A stretch of DNA of 64,000 nucleotides, taken from positions 3,819-67,818 of the forward strand of contig CAIQCK010000103.1 of the NCBI GenBank assembly GCA_903870275.1. The letters are read 5' to 3'. The notes beneath the pieces were generated by a model that saw nothing but the letters and a program-made list of their open reading frames with translations, ran no database searches and was not told the DNA's origin. A program made the position numbers and the translations under genes. This DNA is from an uncultured bacterium (lineage in GTDB: Bacteria; Verrucomicrobiota; Verrucomicrobiia; CAIQCK01). This document shows positions 4,575 to 31,972 of this stretch, piece after piece (position 1 is the first letter of the stretch; the number at the start of each line of letters is the position of its first letter).

Positions 4575-7142
4575 ATGCCGCCAGTGACAACGACACCTGA
4601 TCCCAGCCTGACGCCCATGATGCAGCAGTATCGCCGCATCAAGCGGGAAATCCCCGCCGACGCGCTGCTCTTGTTCCGGCTGGGCGATTTTTACGAGATG
4701 TTTTTCGACGACGCAAAGTCCGGCGCGCAGACGCTCAACCTCACCCTCACCCACCGCAACCACGTCCCGATGTGCGGCATCCCGCATCACGCCGCCGAGG
4801 GCTACATCAGCCGCCTCCTGCGCGCGGGCCGCAAGGTCGCCATCTGCGACCAGATGGAGGAGCCGCGCCCCGGCCAGCTCGTGAAACGCGAGATTTCCCA
4901 AATCCTCAGTCCCGGCGCGCACTTCGACGGCCGGATGCTCGACGCCTCCCGCAACAACTACCTCGCCGCGCTCAGCACCGACGGCAAACGCTTCGGCTTC
5001 GCCCTCGTGGACCTGACCACCGGCGACTTCAGGCTGACGGAGCTGGACTCCGCCGAATTGCTCGCGCACGAACTGACGCGCACGCGGCCCGCGGAGGTCG
5101 TCGCGCCGGCGGCCAAGGTCGAGGAGTTGTCGAAGCTGCTGACCGATTCCCGCGTGATGATCACCGGCCACGAGGACTGGGTGTTCGAAAACCAGACGGC
5201 GTTCTTCACGCTGCGCGACCATTTCAAGACGCAATCGCTCGACGGCTTCGGCTGCGCGGGGATGACGCTCGGCATCGGCGCGGGCGGCGCGGCGCTCTAC
5301 TATCTCCAGAACGTCCTCCGCCGAAACGTCAGCCACATCCGCCGCCTGCAAGTGTATCAAACCGCTGAGTTCCTGGTGCTCGACTCGATCTCGCAGCGGA
5401 ACCTCGAACTGGTCGAGCCGCTCCGCCCCGACGCGCCAAAGAACTCCACGCTCTTCGCCGCGCTCAACCGCACCGCCACAGCGATGGGCGCGCGGCTGTT
5501 GCGTGAGTGGATCACGCATCCGTTGCGCAACGCCGAGGCCATCCGCGCGCGGCAAAAGGTGGTCTTCGAGTTCCACGACATGACCGACGTGCTCGCGGAC
5601 TTTCGCGACCAGCTCAGCCTCGTGCGCGACCTGGAGCGAACGCTCGCCCGGCTCACCGCCGGCAGCGGCAACGCTCGCGACCTGCTCGGCCTGAAGGAAT
5701 CGCTCGCCGCCCTGCCCCTCTTGAAGAGCATCGTCGAGCCGCTCGCCTCGCCGCTGGCGCTGACGTTGCGCGGCTCCATCATCGAACTGCCCGACACGTG
5801 CGACCTTGTCCAACGCGCCATCACCGACGAGCCGCCGTTTACGCTCAGCGACGGCGGCGTCATCCGCGAAGGCTTCAGCCCGGAGCTGGACGAAATCCGC
5901 CGCGCGTCCAAGGAGGGCAAGGAGTGGATCGCCAAGCTCCAGCAGGACGAGATCGAGCGCACCGGCATTTCGTCGCTGAAGGTCCGCTACAACTCCGTCT
6001 TCGGCTACTTCATCGAGGTCACCAAGTCCAACCTCGCCAAGGTTCCCGACAACTACACCCGCAAACAGACCGTCGCCACCGGCGAGCGGTTCATCACGCC
6101 GGAGTTGAAGGAGGTCGAGGGCAAAATCCTCGGCGCGGACGAGCGCGCGGCGAAGCTGGAGGTGGAGTTGTTCCATCAGGTCCGCGCGAAGGTGCTGGAG
6201 CAGACCGCCGCCATCCAACAGACCGCCTCGGCCGTCGCCCACCTCGACGTGCTGGCCGGCTTCGCCGAACTGGCGCGGCACCAGAACTACCATTGTCCGG
6301 AGGTCAACGAGGAGGCGCGCATCGAGATCCGCGACGGCCGCCATCCGGTCGTCGAGCAGCTCATGACCGAAGAGCGGTTCGTGCCCAACGACACCGTCAT
6401 GAACGGCTCCGAGGCGCGCGTGCTGGTCATCACCGGCCCGAACATGGCCGGCAAGAGCACCTACATCCGGCAGGTGGCGCTCTTGGTGCTCATGGCGCAG
6501 ATCGGCTCGTGGATTCCCGCTGCCAAGGCCACCGTCGGCATCGTGGACCGCATCTTCACCCGCGTCGGCGCCAGCGACGACCTCGTGCGCGGCCAGAGCA
6601 CGTTCATGGTGGAGATGAACGAGACCGCCAACATCCTCAACAACGCCACCGCCAAGAGCCTCGTCATCCTCGACGAGATCGGCCGCGGCACCAGCACGTT
6701 CGACGGCCTCTCCATCGCGTGGTCGGTCGCCGAGCACCTGCACAACGAGGTCAAGGCCAAGACGCTCTTCGCCACGCACTATCACGAGCTGACCGAACTG
6801 GCCCGCACCTGTTCCGCCGTCAAGAACTACAACGTCGCCGTCCGCGAGTGGAGCGACCAGATCATCTTCATCCGCAAGATCGTCGAGGGCGGCACCGACA
6901 AGAGCTACGGCATCCACGTCGCCCGCCTCGCCGGCCTCCCCCGCCCCGTCATCGAGCGCGCCAAGGAAATCCTCCGCAACCTCGAGGAGAGCGAACTGAC
7001 CCCCGAAGGCCAGCCCAAGATCGCCCAGCACGAGCACGGCCGGGGGAAAGCCGGAACGCGAAAGGCGAAAGGCGGAACCAAGCCCGCCAAAGTCAGCGAG
7101 CCGCCCCCGCAGATGTTTTTGTTCGGGGATAAGGTGAAATGA
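4575..7142 (+). CDS. mutS: DNA mismatch repair protein MutS
   Basis: N-terminus TPMMQQYRRIKRE...LFRLGDFYEMFFDDA, Walker A GPNMAGKSTYIRQ, and STFMVEMNETANIL...DEIGRGTSTFDGLSIAW. Start set at the ATG at 4575, because the 41 codons upstream translate the REP hairpin and the tandem repeat. Confidence 0.97.
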   Translation: MPPVTTTPDPSLTPMMQQYRRIKREIPADALLLFRLGDFYEMFFDDAKSGAQTLNLTLTHRNHVPMCGIPHHAAEGYISRLLRAGRKVAICDQMEEPRPGQLVKREISQILSPGAHFDGRMLDASRNNYLAALSTDGKRFGFALVDLTTGDFRLTELDSAELLAHELTRTRPAEVVAPAAKVEELSKLLTDSRVMITGHEDWVFENQTAFFTLRDHFKTQSLDGFGCAGMTLGIGAGGAALYYLQNVLRRNVSHIRRLQVYQTAEFLVLDSISQRNLELVEPLRPDAPKNSTLFAALNRTATAMGARLLREWITHPLRNAEAIRARQKVVFEFHDMTDVLADFRDQLSLVRDLERTLARLTAGSGNARDLLGLKESLAALPLLKSIVEPLASPLALTLRGSIIELPDTCDLVQRAITDEPPFTLSDGGVIREGFSPELDEIRRASKEGKEWIAKLQQDEIERTGISSLKVRYNSVFGYFIEVTKSNLAKVPDNYTRKQTVATGERFITPELKEVEGKILGADERAAKLEVELFHQVRAKVLEQTAAIQQTASAVAHLDVLAGFAELARHQNYHCPEVNEEARIEIRDGRHPVVEQLMTEERFVPNDTVMNGSEARVLVITGPNMAGKSTYIRQVALLVLMAQIGSWIPAAKATVGIVDRIFTRVGASDDLVRGQSTFMVEMNETANILNNATAKSLVILDEIGRGTSTFDGLSIAWSVAEHLHNEVKAKTLFATHYHELTELARTCSAVKNYNVAVREWSDQIIFIRKIVEGGTDKSYGIHVARLAGLPRPVIERAKEILRNLEESELTPEGQPKIAQHEHGRGKAGTRKAKGGTKPAKVSEPPPQMFLFGDKVK

Positions 7143-8236
7143 ATGCCGTAGGCAAGATTGGAATGTTCTGCCTTCTCTTGGCGGCAGTGGTTGTTTCTTT
7201 CCTTACGGGCTGTGCAATTGCGCGAGTGCCATATGACGTGACGGTGAAGTATGCAGAGGTTCGTGGTAACATGATTAAGGAGGAGTTCCACAAACAAGTC
7301 CCCTCAGAAATCAAGACATTTGAAGACCTAACCAAGCTGCTGGACGCCTACGACAAGTTCAAAGGCGTAAAGCAGATGAGCTTCGAAGAAAGCGTCTGGA
7401 CCGATGAGGCTCGCGAGGCCATTCGCGGTTTGGAATTCAATCATAACACTTCAGCAGTTTTCTTGGTCGAGATAGTTAGGCGAGAGTTCGATTGCGAAGA
7501 CTTTTGCAAATTCGCCGCGGAACACAGAAACGCAACTGTGGAGTTACTTGATCGCCTTGCAGATCACCCCAGAGAATCTGTTTGGCTTCAAGTCACCAAG
7601 AATTCGAACGTGACCACAGAACTGTTGCGAAAGATATATTTCAACCCAAAGTCTAATTTCTATGTTCGCGGTTACGCAGCTCACAATCCAAAGGCTCCGC
7701 CCGAAATCGTCACCGCTTTTCTTCAGGAAGCGATGTCGAACACGGATCCAAGAAAGAGATGCTGGGCTAGCGGTTTTCCACGCGCGTCGTTATCCTTAGG
7801 AGATTATTCAAAATTGTCGAAAGACCTCGACAAACGCGTTAGAGATGCGCTGGCTAGAAATCCATCAGCGCCAATCTCCATGCTGGAGTCACTTTCGGAA
7901 GATGCTGACCCATATGTGAGCCGGCACGCCCGCGAAACAATTCAAAAGGTGAAGACAAATCACTTCACAAAGAAGGCTCAAGATTTTGTTTGCAGCAACA
8001 AAACGGTTCTTAATCTGATCGGCTCGGTGCCAGAATTTCACCAATTCGATACCAGTTCCTCTAAAGAGCCGTGCCCCGACGGCGGATTTGCGGGACACAC
8101 CTACTTCAGAGTAGAGACACCATCAGCGCACAAAGGCTGTTTGATCAAGATTAGTTGGCGATCCAAAGATTGCGAAGACGACTTCCAACCATTGGAAATT
8201 CAGGCAAACAGCAAAGTGATTTGGAAGACGCAATAA
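7139..8236 (+). CDS. lipoprotein with LRV/HEAT-like repeats (unknown function)
   Basis: Signal peptide plus lipobox (LLLAAVVVSFLTGC). Repeated x-NP-x-x-P-x-x-L units (AAHNPKAPPEIV, ARNPSAPISMLESL, ADHPRESV). Visibly AT-richer than its flanks. Its ATG overlaps the mutS stop (ATGA at 7139-7142). Confidence 0.7.
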   Translation: MNAVGKIGMFCLLLAAVVVSFLTGCAIARVPYDVTVKYAEVRGNMIKEEFHKQVPSEIKTFEDLTKLLDAYDKFKGVKQMSFEESVWTDEAREAIRGLEFNHNTSAVFLVEIVRREFDCEDFCKFAAEHRNATVELLDRLADHPRESVWLQVTKNSNVTTELLRKIYFNPKSNFYVRGYAAHNPKAPPEIVTAFLQEAMSNTDPRKRCWASGFPRASLSLGDYSKLSKDLDKRVRDALARNPSAPISMLESLSEDADPYVSRHARETIQKVKTNHFTKKAQDFVCSNKTVLNLIGSVPEFHQFDTSSSKEPCPDGGFAGHTYFRVETPSAHKGCLIKISWRSKDCEDDFQPLEIQANSKVIWKTQ

Positions 8237-8259: not shown

Positions 8260-9405
8260 ATGCTTATGAAACGAATCACCGCCACCACGGTCGCGCTTTG
8301 GTTCCTGACCTCCGTGCTGTCAGCCTCGGACGGGACGGCGCCGACCGATGTGCCGCAGATTCCGCTGTGCATGATCGGCGACAGCATTACCTGGGCGGGC
8401 GAAGGCGATTACTGGCGGCAGGATCTCCTGGAGCAGCTTCCCGCGCTGGCTTTTGTCGGCACGCACACGGCCAAGCTCGGCTACAGCCACGCGGGCGAAG
8501 GCGGCAACGGCACGCGGGCCGTGCTCGCGCGCCTCGGCGATATCCCGGATTGTCCATACTACTCGCTGCACATCGGCACCAACGACAACAACCTCAAGGA
8601 CGCGTCCGCCATCGAGTCGCACGCCGCCGCCACCGCGGACCGCATCGTCGCCATCGTGCAGGGGCTGTTGAAGAAGCCGTCGGTGCGAAAGGTGTTCCTG
8701 TGCAGCATTCTCCCCTGCCAGACGGACAACCCGTTGCGGGACCGGACCAACGCCGCGACCAACGTGGTGTTGCGACAGAAGATGGCGGCGTTTCCCAAGG
8801 ACAAGGTGGTTTGGGTGGAACTGGAGAAGCCCGTCCGCGCCATCGAGAACTGGGGTCCGATGATCAAGCTGCACCCGACGCAGGAAGGATACAAGGTGAT
8901 GGGGAAGCTGCTGGCCGATGCCATCGCCGCGGCCCTCGGCGTGCAGGATCGCGCCGCCGTGCCGAAACCGCGGCCCGGTTGCGGCGTGCGGGTGGAGAAT
9001 CTTTGGGACGGCGGCGGCAACGGTCGCACGCGTGCGCCGATCATCGCCGGCTGGTATACGGCGTCGTTCGACGTGGTGCGCGCGGCCGGGCCGAAGGCCA
9101 CGGTGACGATCCGCGGCGAACTTCCGCCCGCAAAGGACCCCAAAACCGTGCAGCACGCATTCAACCAGTCATTCCCCGTGGCCTCCGGGGACGCCGGCAA
9201 GCGCGTCACGGTCAACTTCTTCACGGAACACGAGGGCTACAAATACACGCGCTCGCCGTTGGCGTTGACGGCCTCCGGATGCGAGATCACGAAAATCCTG
9301 GTCGAGAAGCGGCGGCCATCCGGCAAAGCCTCCACCTACGGCCAAGGCTCGTATGTGGACACCGCGACCGCACCCCTGCCCGGCGAACTTGTGGAACGAC
9401 CGTAA
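8260..9405 (+). CDS. secreted SGNH/GDSL hydrolase with a C-terminal beta-rich domain
   Basis: Signal peptide MLMKRITATTVALWFLTSVLSA. SGNH blocks GDSITWAG, GEGGNGT, HIGTNDNN and a LHPTQEGY-type block V. Start moved from 8155 to the Met preceding the signal peptide. Confidence 0.8.
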   Translation: MLMKRITATTVALWFLTSVLSASDGTAPTDVPQIPLCMIGDSITWAGEGDYWRQDLLEQLPALAFVGTHTAKLGYSHAGEGGNGTRAVLARLGDIPDCPYYSLHIGTNDNNLKDASAIESHAAATADRIVAIVQGLLKKPSVRKVFLCSILPCQTDNPLRDRTNAATNVVLRQKMAAFPKDKVVWVELEKPVRAIENWGPMIKLHPTQEGYKVMGKLLADAIAAALGVQDRAAVPKPRPGCGVRVENLWDGGGNGRTRAPIIAGWYTASFDVVRAAGPKATVTIRGELPPAKDPKTVQHAFNQSFPVASGDAGKRVTVNFFTEHEGYKYTRSPLALTASGCEITKILVEKRRPSGKASTYGQGSYVDTATAPLPGELVERP

Positions 9406-9503
9406 ACGCTGGCGACAGATTTACCCGGCGCTGATAGAAATCTCTGCAAAAGCCGTTGTCCACACTGTAGCGGCGGTCCCATGAAAATAATAGCAAGTTT
9501 CTC

Positions 9504-9532
9504 TTGACATATAGAGAAAGTATCTATATGTT
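9504..9532 (+). promoter_or_regulatory. sigma70-like promoter candidate (TTGACA-17 nt-TATGTT)
   Basis: Perfect -35 TTGACA at 9504-9509 inside a short AT-rich island (9481-9535) in otherwise GC-rich DNA. A -10-like TATGTT lies at 9527-9532 (alternative TATATG at 9525-9530). No annotated gene follows for about 760 nt. Confidence 0.45.
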
Positions 9533-10059
9533 CTTCCCGCCATGAATTGGACCGGCACGCGGGCGCAGACCCTCCGGCCGGGAGCCGGCGGCGGCAACCC
9601 GGAGGCCGGCCCGAGCCATCCGCGGATGGTTGCGGGCACCGGCCTCGTGCCGCCATCCAAGACCCGGCCCGGCCCCACAAGCCGGATGGTGACGGGCCAG
9701 ACGCCGCCGGCATGGACCACGGACGATCTGGCGGCCACGCCGCCTCTTGATGGCCCCAAGCGCCAGAACCGCCCCCAACGCGGACGGCTGCGGCTGGTGG
9801 CGGGACGATCATCCTCCCCATCCATCATCTGGGTCAATTTTTCAAAACGAACCCATATGATGGCCCCGGTCCAACCTGGAAAACATCGTTTTCCCGAAGA
9901 AAACCCGGGGTTCGATGCCCGAGGGCCGGGGAATTCAAAAGGTGTTTTTACGAAACGAAGCCAAATGAAAGGAGGCTCATGTCAGGGAATGATACGGTTC
10001 GGAGTTGGCCTTGCCCGGTAGCGGCGGTAGCGGCAAAGCGTCTCCAACCCGCTCGCTCG

Positions 10060-10170
10060 GTCAAGGTTCGGTCAAAGCCAGTCAAAGTGAAAACGCCCAA
10101 AAATAATTTGGCCTAATCCGGGTTGATCCGGCTGCATCCGACCTGATCCGACTCAATCCAACAGAAACCG
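10060..10170 (+). repeat. helically phased short direct repeats (GTCAARG x3, then ATCCG-like x6 at exact 10-bp spacing)
   Basis: GTCAAG at 10060, then GTCAAAG at 10071 and 10081. ATCCG at 10116, 10126, 10136 and 10146, then ATCCA at 10156 and AACCG at 10166. Confidence 0.8.
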
Positions 10171-10301
10171 ACCCAGTGAAACCCATGAAACATTGCAAAC
10201 GCACGATGGCTGTGGCGGCGGAACAAAACCAAATCATGCCACCGAAGGGCAAACATTTCACCGAGACTTTCTGGCTGGTTGCCATTAGGATGGCGCCCGA
10301 C

Positions 10302-10817
10302 ATGAAACGGCTTCTCATTCTGCTCCTGTTCGCCGCTGCCGTGTCCGTGGGCGCGGTGGAGGTGGATGTCACGCTCAAGAACGGCAAGAAGGTGACGGGC
10401 GGCGTGCTGGTTGATAACGACCGCGAGATCATCATCCTCGTGCAGGCGTCCAACGGCGTTTACCGGCAGACGATCAAGAAAGCCGACGTTGCTGGGGTCA
10501 AAGAGCACGCCGCGCCGAAAGCCGGGCCGCCCGGCCCCGCGGACGTGGCACGGCTGCAAAAGAGCATCAAGGCCGCCGAGGAGGACGTGCGCCGGCGCGA
10601 GGCGGAGATCCCCATTGCCCAGAAGGCGCTGGATGATTTCTACGGCAGCCACCCCGACGCCAAGGCGGCAACGCTGGACAGGGAGCGGAAGTTGCGTGCG
10701 CGACTGGCGACGACTCGAACGCAAGTGGATATCGCCCGCTCCAAACTCAACGCACTCACCTTGGACCTCGGAGCGATGAGCCGCCAGTTGACCGAGCCGC
10801 CGCCGCAGGCGAAGTGA
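10302..10817 (+). CDS. secreted hypothetical protein with a C-terminal coiled-coil
   Basis: Start chosen at MKRLLILLLFAAAVSVGA (signal peptide) within ORF 10176..10817. A small beta-rich N-domain is followed by a heptad-like charged region (AEEDVRRREAEIPIAQKALDD...). Confidence 0.55.
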   Translation: MKRLLILLLFAAAVSVGAVEVDVTLKNGKKVTGGVLVDNDREIIILVQASNGVYRQTIKKADVAGVKEHAAPKAGPPGPADVARLQKSIKAAEEDVRRREAEIPIAQKALDDFYGSHPDAKAATLDRERKLRARLATTRTQVDIARSKLNALTLDLGAMSRQLTEPPPQAK

Positions 10818-10839
10818 GGAAGCGGTGAGGCGAACCCTC

Positions 10840-11583
10840 TCAACCCTGCCGCCCTGCGGGAACTGTTCCCTTCAGAAGAACGCTGGTTCCCAGCGGCAAA
10901 GGAAGCCCCTTGTCCACCTGCAACAACGCGCGAAGGACGGCACTGGTGAACGGGTGGGTTTTGCTGTCGCCCGAATCGGCAAGCGGGTAGGCACGGCGCA
11001 AAATTCTGCTGTAGAGCAGGCAAACCGGGATCAGGGTGAATCCAAAATACCGCACTCGATCAACCACGACGGCACGGCCGACCGTTTGGCGCAACGAGCG
11101 GATGGAGTAGCGCCGGTAGTGCCCGAGGGATTCATCGTGAAAACCGAACAGCCATTGGCCCGCCGGCACGGTGAGCATCAAGAGGCCGCCGGGGCGCGCG
11201 CACGCGATCAATTTCTCCACGGCTTTCACATCGTCCCGGATATGCTCGATCACGTCGGTGGCGATCACGCAATCGTAGGGCTGGCTGACCTGAAGGTCTT
11301 CGATGGAGCAAACCTTGAACGTGCAACGGGGAATCGCCAGTGCCCCCGCCGTCTGCCTTGCCAGCTCGATATACTCGCGCGAAGGATCAACGCCCATGAC
11401 ATCGTGACCGGCTTCGGCCAGCAGGAACGACAGATCCCCCGAACCGCATCCCGCGTTCAAAATCCTCAGCGGCTTCGGCTCTGCGCCCAGCCATTCCAGG
11501 AGGATGCGATACTTCGTGTGCGCATACAAATCCCGCGAGCGCGCCAGCAAGTCTTGATACTGATAAGCGTTAAAGCCGTTCAT
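10840..11583 (-). CDS. class I SAM-dependent methyltransferase
   Basis: Motif I LRILNAGCGSGDLSFLLAEAGHDVMGVDPS, followed by VIATDVIEHI and GGLLMLTVP. Confidence 0.85.
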   Translation of the reverse strand: MNGFNAYQYQDLLARSRDLYAHTKYRILLEWLGAEPKPLRILNAGCGSGDLSFLLAEAGHDVMGVDPSREYIELARQTAGALAIPRCTFKVCSIEDLQVSQPYDCVIATDVIEHIRDDVKAVEKLIACARPGGLLMLTVPAGQWLFGFHDESLGHYRRYSIRSLRQTVGRAVVVDRVRYFGFTLIPVCLLYSRILRRAYPLADSGDSKTHPFTSAVLRALLQVDKGLPLPLGTSVLLKGTVPAGRQG

Positions 11584-26845: not shown

Positions 26846-26886
26846 GCTGTAGCGGCGGTCTCCAACCACCGAGCTGTTCATTATCA
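26846..26886. repeat. truncated REP-like element (type A, left arm plus loop only)
   Basis: gctgtagcggcggtctccaaccaccgagctgttcattatcaa matches the left arm and loop of the complete hairpin at 27059-27130. It stops exactly at the junction with the fabF fragment. Confidence 0.75.
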
Positions 26887-27058: not shown

Positions 27059-27130
27059 GCTGTAGCGGCGGTCTCCGACCGCCGAAATGTTCATCATCAA
27101 CAACCGGCGGTCAGAGACCGCCGCTACAGC
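27059..27130. repeat. REP-like hairpin (type A, complete)
   Basis: Arms gctgtagcggcggtctccgaccgccg (27059-27084) and cggcggtcagagaccgccgctacagc (27105-27130) form a 26-nt inverted repeat with one mismatch and a 20-nt loop. A partial copy (ctgtagcggcggtc) lies at 9465-9478. Confidence 0.85.
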
Positions 27131-31897: not shown

Positions 31898-31972
31898 TGG
31901 TGGGCGCTGTTGGGATTGAACCAACGACCCCTTGCGTGTGAAGCAAGTGCTCTCCCACTGAGCTAAGCGCCC
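31898..31972 (-). tRNA. tRNA-Val (anticodon CAC), CCA encoded
   Basis: Folded by hand. Acceptor GGGCGCT/AGCGCCC, D stem GCTC/GAGC, anticodon stem CTTGC/GCAAG with loop TTCACAC, T stem GTTGG/CCAAC with loop TTCAATC, discriminator A, then CCA. 75 nt. Confidence 0.92.

Follow-up and report, generated by a model that had tools for sequence, protein, structure and literature searches.

The segment at positions 9406–10301 of the window, by which we mean the whole analysed stretch of 64,000 nucleotides, had been described from its letters alone as free of any convincing coding sequence (CDS) and as possibly a structured non-coding RNA (ncRNA) or a very long leader of the gene at 10302. The lack of a CDS is borne out by codon-position, reading-frame and third-codon-position GC (GC3) tests and by a Pfam search. 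The promoter and the three palindromes of that sequence-only reading are likewise found on direct inspection: CCTCCGG (9571–9577) is complementary to CCGGAGG (9599–9605), the 14 bp palindrome CCATCCGCGGATGG occupies 9616–9629 and GGAAAAC-atc-GTTTTCC occupies 9878–9894. The GC content is 0.68–0.75 across 9500–9800 and drops to about 0.5 at 9800–10000. Comparison with related loci indicates that the segment belongs to a dispersed, modular family of non-coding elements that has not been described before and that is present in many copies in a boreal-lake lineage of the Limisphaerales (Verrucomicrobia subdivision 3). The earlier interpretation is partly right, but it overlooks this multiplicity and the fact that the conserved part is a repeated box and not the GC-rich palindromes.

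Copy number and distribution

When window positions 8500–11500 are compared with the other loci using BLAST, paralogue similarity spans only about 9490–10222 and is zero in the flanking genes. Because the similarity is limited in this way, the CDS-poor gap appears to be essentially a single family unit covering window positions ∼9485–10222. A scan of JGI metagenomes with a two-box pattern (the boxes are blocks B and C of Table 1) gave 41 matching loci, all from two lake samples, and five of the contigs carry two copies each. These two-copy contigs argue against the 'paralogues' being orthologues from many strains. By the same counts, what had been read as one structured RNA or leader is not singular but belongs to a multi-copy modular family. 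A hidden Markov model of the 3′ module, run with nhmmer, finds 55 full-length matches in all fetched DNA, 44 of which are distinct. Within the 64 kb window there are no extra copies, as nhmmer and pattern searches return this one only.

Among the GTDB representative genomes, a single-box scan identified one true family member, in a metagenome-assembled genome (MAG) titled 'Verrucomicrobia subdivision 3', the equivalent of the order Limisphaerales in current NCBI naming. The exact 20-mer has 16 matches in GTDB, about the number estimated by chance. One viral contig (L072, 1367–1386; IMG/VR IMGVR_UViG_3300030107_006499) also contains an exact copy of the block C 20-mer, which is probably due to chance. 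Further family copies are obtained from a protein search with the 159-amino-acid open reading frame (ORF) that is discussed below, which yields ten ORF calls. The close homologues among them (77–84% identity) are syntenic orthologues. In the distant ones, similarity is limited to the central part of the ORF, and the gene neighbourhoods are quite different.

Paralogues on the same contig are 47–62% identical over about 750 nt; despite this divergence, little or no variation is seen in the promoter or in blocks B and C. Since copies that have drifted so far apart keep both promoter and boxes, they look like old paralogues with conserved islands, a pattern that fits function at each locus and not recent selfish spread. 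Recent spread can itself be rejected, as the high identity between same-contig copies that it calls for is not seen.

Promoter

The promoter of the unit scores 10 out of 12 in a promoter scan, which found two promoter-like sites in the 2 kb region compared with 0.2 expected. It sits in an AT-rich island, and an inverted-repeat search shows TTTCTCT (9498–9504) and AGAGAAA (9513–9519) flanking the −35 element in an operator-like arrangement. The family form is TTGACA-16/17-TATAT within this TTTCTCT/AGAGAAA inverted repeat, the alignment across copies gives AGCAAaTTTCTCTTGACAT-ATAGAGAAa..CTATAT as a highly conserved promoter block, and the exact pattern TTTCTCTTGACA-N14-19-TATAT is present in 25 fetched loci, each time accompanied by the 3′ module. 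Being the best-conserved island in paralogues that otherwise share only 47–62% identity, the near-consensus promoter recognized in the sequence-only reading is almost certainly real; it is also very likely to be functional. Promoter data are nearly lacking for this phylum, and the element offers a concrete consensus of promoter and operator that can be tested. The ATG within the 'cnATGAA' word that follows the −10 element is the start used by gene callers for a spurious ORF, and no conserved ORF lies behind it.

Anatomy of the unit

The features of the unit are collected in Table 1. The promoter, the 9616–9629 palindrome (as CAATCC-AC-GGATTG) and the 9878–9894 palindrome recur in dozens of paralogous copies, which is beyond chance. 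The 9571–9605 pairing falls in the variable part and its sequence is loosely kept as ...CCGCCGGAGGCC.... Few paralogues extend into this variable body in BLAST, and block B follows the ATG at a distance of anything between 70 and 450 nt, depending on the copy. Besides the 9571–9605 pairing and the 14 bp palindrome, the body holds a second CCGGATGG at 9682–9689. In other copies it often contains the CAATCC-AC-GGATTG hairpin together with tandem CACGGATT words, and the 14 bp palindrome of the window is homologous to both; a pair of this family hairpin is A-U in eight sequences and C-G in five. The GC-rich, palindrome-laden stretch that had been stressed originally is thus the variable and weakly constrained part of the unit, and the conserved part is the AT-richer 3′ module.

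This module is about 125 nt long and consists of two copies of the box (U)5-ACGAAACGAAsCCAAAUGA plus the AAAAC/GUUUU hairpin system. The box pattern has two matches in the window (9841 and 9949) compared with 0.05 expected. Block B has the family form TTTTTCAAAACGAACCCAwATGATGG and in subfamily A provides the 3′ arm of a 13–20 bp imperfect hairpin; in this subfamily one box copy is sequestered in the hairpin and the other is exposed. Block C, with the family form TTTTTACGAAACGAAsCCAAATGA, is found 103–104 nt after block B, and subfamily B has a third box about 80 nt beyond block C. Between the boxes, two mutually exclusive hairpins are possible, namely 9878–9894 or 9888–9904, the latter lengthened by an outer GAAAA/UUUC helix. 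Perfect 16–17 bp versions of the hairpin occur in some copies (for example L052 and L060; L numbers denote individual loci). A terminator-like site is also seen on the minus strand at 9904–9923 (CTCGGGCATCGAACCCCGGG followed by TTTTCTTCGG). This site is internal to the conserved 3′ module, whose palindromes may have given rise to it.

Beyond block C, at least two ATCCG repeats are present downstream in 23 of 33 units, and their phasing continues into the right-end block. The TGAAACCC-N17-GCACGATGG pattern of this block (10177–10207) has one match in the window compared with 0.00 expected, and the block may be a second promoter, resembling those of extracytoplasmic function (ECF) sigma factors, or the 3′ end of the unit. 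Three copies (L043, L051 and L053) carry the ATCCG array and the right-end block upstream of block B, and it is because of this rearrangement that we consider modules to have been shuffled between copies.

Table 1 Features of the family unit and of its left edge (window coordinates)
Feature	Position	Strand	Details
REP-like half palindrome (CTGTAGCGGCGGTC), adjoining the left edge of the unit	9465–9478	+	5 window matches versus 0.7 expected
σ70-type promoter, family-conserved	9490–9532	+	Upstream A/T-rich block AGCAAGTTTCTC; −35 TTGACA 9504–9509; 17 nt spacer; −10 TATGTT 9527–9532
'cnATGAA' word	9542–9546	+	∼10–12 nt past −10; kept in nearly all promoter-bearing copies
GC-rich variable body	9547–9800	+	∼50 to ∼430 nt in other copies (body alone 48–433 nt)
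Imperfect hairpin with block B as 3′ arm	9822–9863	+	Inverted repeat I1; folds in 27/41 copies
Block B, TTTTTCAAAACGAACCCATATGATGG	9838–9863	+	Invariant or nearly so in 41 sequences
AAAAC/GUUUU hairpin system	9878–9916	+	GGAAAAC 9878–9884, atc, GTTTTCC 9888–9894, cgaa, GAAAAC 9899–9904 ... TTCGAT 9911–9916
Block C, TTTTTACGAAACGAAGCCAAATGA	9945–9968	+	Second box copy; predicted mostly unpaired; invariant in 41 copies
RGTCAAAG repeats (GGTCAAAGCCAGTCAAAGTG), ∼10 nt period	10060–10083	+	Regular-expression module map; also in L006, L011, L017, L033, L060
nATCCGnnnn array, 10 bp phased (TAATCCGGGT TGATCCGGCT GCATCCGACC TGATCCGACT CAATCCAACA)	10113–10165	+	Period 10 in Tandem Repeats Finder (TRF)
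Right-end conserved block, TGAAACCC-N17-GCACGATGG-CTGTGGCGGCGG	10177–10222	+	Aligns across 10 copies

RNA folding and proposed function

The plus-strand RNA 9539–9970 folds at z = −3.0 relative to shuffled sequences, compared with z = −1.75 for the minus strand. In the alignment columns, G·U outnumbers A·C by 57:11 in the inner central helix and by 26:11 in hairpin 1, which favours folding of the plus-strand transcript, and the A-U to C-G exchange in the family hairpin is likewise counted for the plus-strand RNA. The proportion of paired cells is 90% for hairpin 1 and 73% for the central hairpin. According to the folding predictions, block C is accessible, with a mean unpaired probability of 0.56 over 34 copies compared with 0.40 for the whole RNA. 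Covariation, however, is weak (see below), so that conservation lies mostly in the primary sequence and not in a global fold.

We propose, with about as much confidence as doubt, that the units form a family of co-regulated non-coding RNA genes in which the boxes are a platform for a shared factor. Each copy would be a transcription unit of its own, and, with an inverted repeat bracketing the σ70-type promoter, all of them could be under the joint control of a single repressor or activator. Transcription in the window would start rightwards from about 9539 and the RNA would reach at least block C (∼430 nt); as no terminator is visible, it may continue to about 10222 or into the gene at 10302. 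The 5′ body would be a fast-evolving GC-rich scaffold of local hairpins and the ∼125 nt 3′ module the conserved business end, which displays the box ACGAAACGAAsCCAAAUGA two times (three times in one subfamily), the boxes being held apart by the AAAAC/GUUUU hairpin system with its two alternative folds. Because it is the primary sequence that is conserved, and in exposed repeats, the boxes are likely to bind a shared trans-acting factor, either a protein or another RNA. The family would then be a many-gene titrating or regulatory RNA set with a CsrB/RsmZ/CrcZ-like build and a FopS-like multiplicity, although some of its units may also act as leaders. The multiplicity, the modular anatomy, the selective conservation of promoter and boxes, the lack of a coding signal and the absence from Rfam are direct results of the analysis; transcription, the RNA ends and the titration mechanism are points that we infer. 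If the units are transcribed, the lineage runs tens of co-regulated 0.4–0.7 kb ncRNA genes from one promoter type, far more members than in any described paralogous small RNA (sRNA) family. The combination of a repeated box and a variable scaffold would then point to factor titration and not to base-pairing by a structured core.

A number of observations weigh against this proposal. The covariation by which a structured RNA was to be recognized is weak: neither hairpin 1 nor the hand-drawn central hairpin covaries beyond shuffles, and in RNAalifold the 3′ module reaches only −0.39 kcal/mol and the 5′ part −10.35 kcal/mol, the latter with a covariation term of about zero. On these results a globally conserved fold was rejected, and with consensus folding energy and covariation this weak, function at the RNA level falls short of being proven. 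A plus-strand intrinsic terminator is absent after block C in the window, in L008 and in L037. Internal repeats of three kinds (CACGGATT, RGTCAAAG and ATCCG) have a 10 bp period, equal to the DNA helical repeat, which hints at protein binding at the DNA level. Co-oriented downstream genes outnumber convergent ones (25 versus 11 units), as also fits the role of a leader or promoter cassette. Tens of copies per genome would be unusually many for a trans-acting sRNA family.

We also considered pairing between the CGGAU words of the 5′ part and the AUCCG array of the 3′ part. The unit's own 3′ region ranks no better than those of other units, and the duplex energies are implausibly large, making this a weak test; the pairing was not retained. 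The short contigs carrying P0005 and P0010 (P numbers denote ORF calls in public assemblies) were examined as possible transcripts and turned out to be metagenome scaffolds, so they provide no transcript ends.

Gene context

Gene context was derived using a crude GC3-based gene finder, for which the window served as a check. Of 36 units, 25 are followed by a co-oriented gene and 11 by a convergent one. On the upstream side, 20 of 29 units have a divergent gene and nine a co-oriented one. Independent gene calls show three copies with a convergent gene, or with no co-oriented gene, downstream. Where the downstream genes are co-oriented, they look mutually unrelated as judged by eye from their first residues, and they appear to include ribosomal protein S1-, HisG- and cytochrome bd subunit-like genes. 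Given the copies with convergent or no co-oriented genes, and given these apparently unrelated downstream genes, the unit appears to be an autonomous module that tends to occupy promoter-type spacers and not the leader of a particular regulon.

The alternative that survives best is nevertheless a cis-acting promoter-plus-leader cassette, in which the strong regulated promoter (perhaps together with the block at 10177–10207) produces a long 5′ leader, here for the 171-amino-acid secreted protein encoded by 10302–10817. The boxes would then act in cis as antitermination or NusG-like recruitment sites or pause sites, as Rho antagonists or as translation or stability elements. The prevailing gene orientations on both sides of the unit are in agreement with such a cassette, as are the lack of a plus-strand terminator between 9532 and 10302 and the presence of very long downstream genes (890–1552 amino acids) at some loci. 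It is harder to reconcile with the copies, at least three, that have a convergent or no co-oriented gene downstream, with the apparent lack, by eye from the first residues, of a common function among the downstream genes and with the need for a leader of about 760 nt ahead of a gene of only 171 codons. We regard the cassette as possible rather than probable. The long leader of the gene at 10302 that was originally suggested may still apply to this particular copy, which has no plus-strand terminator, but the convergent and orphan contexts exclude it as the general function.

In public annotation, position 10185, which is still part of the repeat unit, is taken as the start of the downstream gene. 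As similarity between paralogues extends to about 10222, we find it more plausible that the gene starts at 10302, where a signal peptide begins (MKRLLILLLF...).

A possible DNA-level repeat

As an alternative to the co-regulated RNA genes preferred here, the unit could be a DNA-level dispersed mosaic repeat of the BIME/REP, BOX, ERIC or Correia-like type, in which the conserved islands are DNA–protein sites or curvature and transcription is incidental. Candidate binders are a repressor at the inverted repeat, a response regulator at the phased ATCCG array, or nucleoid proteins. Such a repeat would explain why modules vary in number and order (L043, L051 and L053), why three repeat types share a 10 bp period, why A/T tracts are phased around AAAAC/GTTTT, why other repeats of the REP-like and MITE-like kinds (MITE, miniature inverted-repeat transposable element) are found in association with the units and why RNA covariation is weak. 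It would not lead one to expect the full consensus promoter that old paralogues of 47–62% identity keep, and the asymmetry of G·U over A·C favours folding of the plus-strand transcript instead. Terminal inverted repeats and target-site duplications are not seen at the unit edges, and plasmid and phage collections contain no match. We consider this explanation unlikely, though still to be reckoned with.

More specific mobile-element origins can be set aside. A MITE or other non-autonomous transposon is contradicted by the absence of an inverted repeat joining the unit ends and by a left edge that is ragged between subfamilies. The 12-mer CTGTRGCGGCGG that flanks the unit belongs on the left to a separate REP-like family and on the right to the unit's own conserved end. 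A plasmid or phage origin is rejected because BLAST gives no match in those collections and neither terminal inverted repeats nor target-site duplications are seen.

The REP-like repeat that adjoins the left edge, CTGTAGCGGCGGTC(TC)...GAGACCGCCGCTACAG, occurs in the window at 9465–9478, 26847–26860, 27060–27073 and 27116–27129 (− strand), with a full inverted pair in the spacer 27060–27129, and the word also flanks the family copies L006, L036, L043 and L044. A near-perfect hairpin of about 110 nt, GGTGGGGCGAGACTCCGTCGAGCCTCC...GGAGGCTCGACGGAGTCTCGCCCCACC, is located inside the variable part of L017, L030, L059 and L061 and is absent from the window; it looks like a MITE-like repeat that has landed in some copies. 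Upstream of the unit, the gene at 7139–8236 has a GC content of ∼0.46–0.50, compared with ∼0.62–0.67 for its neighbours, and a Pfam match to the leucine-rich-repeat variant (LRV). It may be a horizontal acquisition.

Coding potential

The longest ORF in the segment is 9542–10021 (159 amino acids), and public assemblies annotate the unit as hypothetical proteins of 125–197 amino acids (P0001–P0010). The GC contents at the three codon positions of this ORF are 0.65/0.62/0.67, compared with about 0.63/0.44/0.82 in real genes of the window, and it has no Pfam match. Differences at codon positions 1/2/3 in the pairs formed by the window, L006 and L011 number 6/9/7, 11/11/7 and 7/12/8, and sum to 369/375/392 for six copies of one subfamily; the control gene 10302–10817 shows 6/8/18 substitutions. 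Counted from the ATG, block B is in frame 0, 1 and 2 in 19, 7 and 7 copies, respectively, and in seven copies a stop occurs less than 50 codons on. The nucleotide box that blocks B and C have in common is read differently in the two, as their reading frames are not the same. The C-termini of the ORFs are frameshifted over identical nucleotides, with GVFTKRSQMKGG in the window and GFLRNEPK* in P0006 both derived from TTTTTACGAAACGAAsCCAAATGA, which places the conservation at the nucleotide level. These comparisons indicate that the 159-amino-acid ORF is spurious and that the segment encodes no protein.

A real gene for a Pro/Gly/Arg-rich protein at 9542–10021, as annotated in public assemblies, could point to the several assemblies that call an ORF at the unit, to the conserved ATG and to frame 0 between ATG and block B in 19 of 33 copies. 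Against it stand the lack of a third-position excess in both orthologue and paralogue comparisons, the early stops, the frameshifted C-termini, the unbiased GC3 and the blank Pfam search, and chance alone should in any case produce long ORFs where GC-rich DNA gives way to AT-rich blocks with stops. Such a gene is therefore very improbable, and the units called 'hypothetical proteins' in public assemblies amount to a systematic annotation error.

Smaller ORFs fare no better. A 45-amino-acid ORF (9979–10116) behind AAAGGAGG is not conserved, as inspection by eye shows a frameshift in L006 and no start codon in L062. The 36-codon ORF from the ATG of block B to the TGA of block C is in frame in only seven of 33 copies, those with 103 nt spacing. 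Neither is the conserved small hydrophobic ORF that would be needed for a type I toxin–antitoxin locus, which was likewise discarded.

Known RNA families

At gathering thresholds, Rfam 15 matches only tRNA-Val (31901–31972) in the whole window, and at E ≤ 10 the region 9200–10500 yields only a chance match to rseX on the minus strand (23.1 bits compared with a gathering score of 50; E = 4). No Rfam match is found in ten related loci, and ARAGORN detects no tmRNA. The earlier failure to match RNase P, tmRNA, signal recognition particle (SRP) or 6S RNA by eye is thus upheld by cmscan against Rfam. A length of about 430–700 nt and a promoter of its own do recall housekeeping or large ncRNAs, but divergence from an established family (RNase P, tmRNA, 6S, SRP, riboswitches or the large ROOL, GOLLD and OLE RNAs) is hardly credible for a unit that stays below every gathering score in Rfam 15 (HEARO and riboswitches included), draws a blank with ARAGORN and is multi-copy where housekeeping RNAs are single-copy.

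Box arrays in other phyla

Since the 16 GTDB matches are about as many as chance would give, the evidence for a wider occurrence of the motif comes from local arrays and not from the hit count. In a Binataceae-type MAG (L025), seven copies of AAACRAASCCA are found on one strand within 420 nt, compared with 0.00 expected. This array (215–636, − strand) and those of L015 and L028, which also come from 'delta proteobacterium'/Binataceae-type MAGs, have 5–7 same-strand copies spaced 40–100 nt apart. They fill the ∼600 nt leader of a gene that by eye is paaK-like (phenylacetate-CoA-ligase-like), an arrangement that is kept in L015 and L028 and that also speaks for the leader cassette considered above. 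An Acidobacteriaceae MAG (L022) has six copies (0.02 expected). In L022 (2364–3297) and L019 (3170–4148), 5–6 copies of AAACRAASCCA on one strand lie inside adjacent ORFs of 852 and 1271 amino acids. The Acidobacteriaceae array spans three reading frames, and by eye the ORFs are SNF2-helicase-like and Eco57I-like methyltransferase-like.

These Binatia-type and Acidobacteria arrays suggest a broader recognition element. It is conceivable, though we hold it to be quite doubtful, that the C/A-rich box (RAAACRAAsCCA) is recognized by a nucleic-acid-binding factor conserved across phyla, around which the Limisphaerales family would have grown into a co-regulated RNA regulon of sponges and leaders.

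Comparison with known systems

The comparisons with mosaic repeats, with ops/JUMPstart and with CsrB/RsmY/RsmZ/CrcZ draw on general knowledge. The family resembles BIME/REP, BOX A-B(n)-C and Correia elements in that it is dispersed and intergenic, is built from variable and shuffled modules, is rich in palindromes, carries promoter-like sequences and co-occurs with other repeats. It differs from them (BIME, BOX and Correia elements are 35–300 bp long, more uniform and without a full promoter and operator in every copy) in consisting of old paralogues in which only islands are conserved and in which terminal inverted repeats and target duplications are not seen. With the ops/JUMPstart elements read by RfaH, LoaP and UpxY it shares a short, strand-specific element of about 12 nt in a long leader, on the non-template strand and read by sequence and not by RNA fold. 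In contrast, the box differs from ops in sequence, is repeated where ops normally occurs once, and is found also in units without a co-oriented downstream operon.

Other sequence-specific elements were compared by eye. The spacing of a σ54 promoter on the opposite strand fits only some of the non-Verrucomicrobia copies, and CtsR boxes (GTCAAAG repeats), parS (GTTTTCC/GGAAAAC), the tRNA T-arm (CGAACC) and Hfq sites of the AAnAAnAA type give no consistent fit.

CsrB, RsmY and RsmZ titrate CsrA, and CrcZ titrates Hfq/Crc. The proposed RNAs have a similar build to CsrB/RsmZ/CrcZ, being a few hundred nucleotides long, with a short motif repeated between hairpins, no global fold and a dedicated regulated promoter. 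Some family copies additionally carry tandem CAnGGAnK words (CACGGAUU) of the CsrA/RsmE-like kind; CACGGATT-type words number 0–5 per copy, with two CGGAT in the window and none in many copies. Unlike in CsrB/RsmZ, the main box has no GGA and is present only two or three times per RNA, and there are tens of gene copies compared with 1–3. Unlike CrcZ-type sites, the Verrucomicrobia version of the box does not fit AAnAAnAA.

Neither the plasmid and phage collections nor a literature search by sequence words and topic, together a limited test, revealed sequence homology to a described mosaic repeat, and the literature offered nothing relevant apart from the analogy with FopS. In Bacteroides thetaiotaomicron, FopS comprises 14 paralogous sRNAs with canonical promoters and a conserved single-stranded region that is bound by the global RNA-binding protein RbpB; these RNAs are 65–70 nt long and have a 5′ seed and a Rho-independent terminator (PMC11697453). 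The Limisphaerales units differ in being 430–740 nt long with no visible terminator and in having two or three copies of the box towards the 3′ end, and the two families share no sequence. The likeness lies in the organization. As in FopS, there are many intergenic paralogous copies per genome, each with a canonical promoter of its own, as the five two-copy contigs and the promoter pattern in 25 loci illustrate, and the copies diverge apart from a conserved stretch that is predicted to be single-stranded in the Limisphaerales family. Co-expression of the copies and joint action with a global RNA-binding protein, as in FopS, is what we propose for the Limisphaerales family too.

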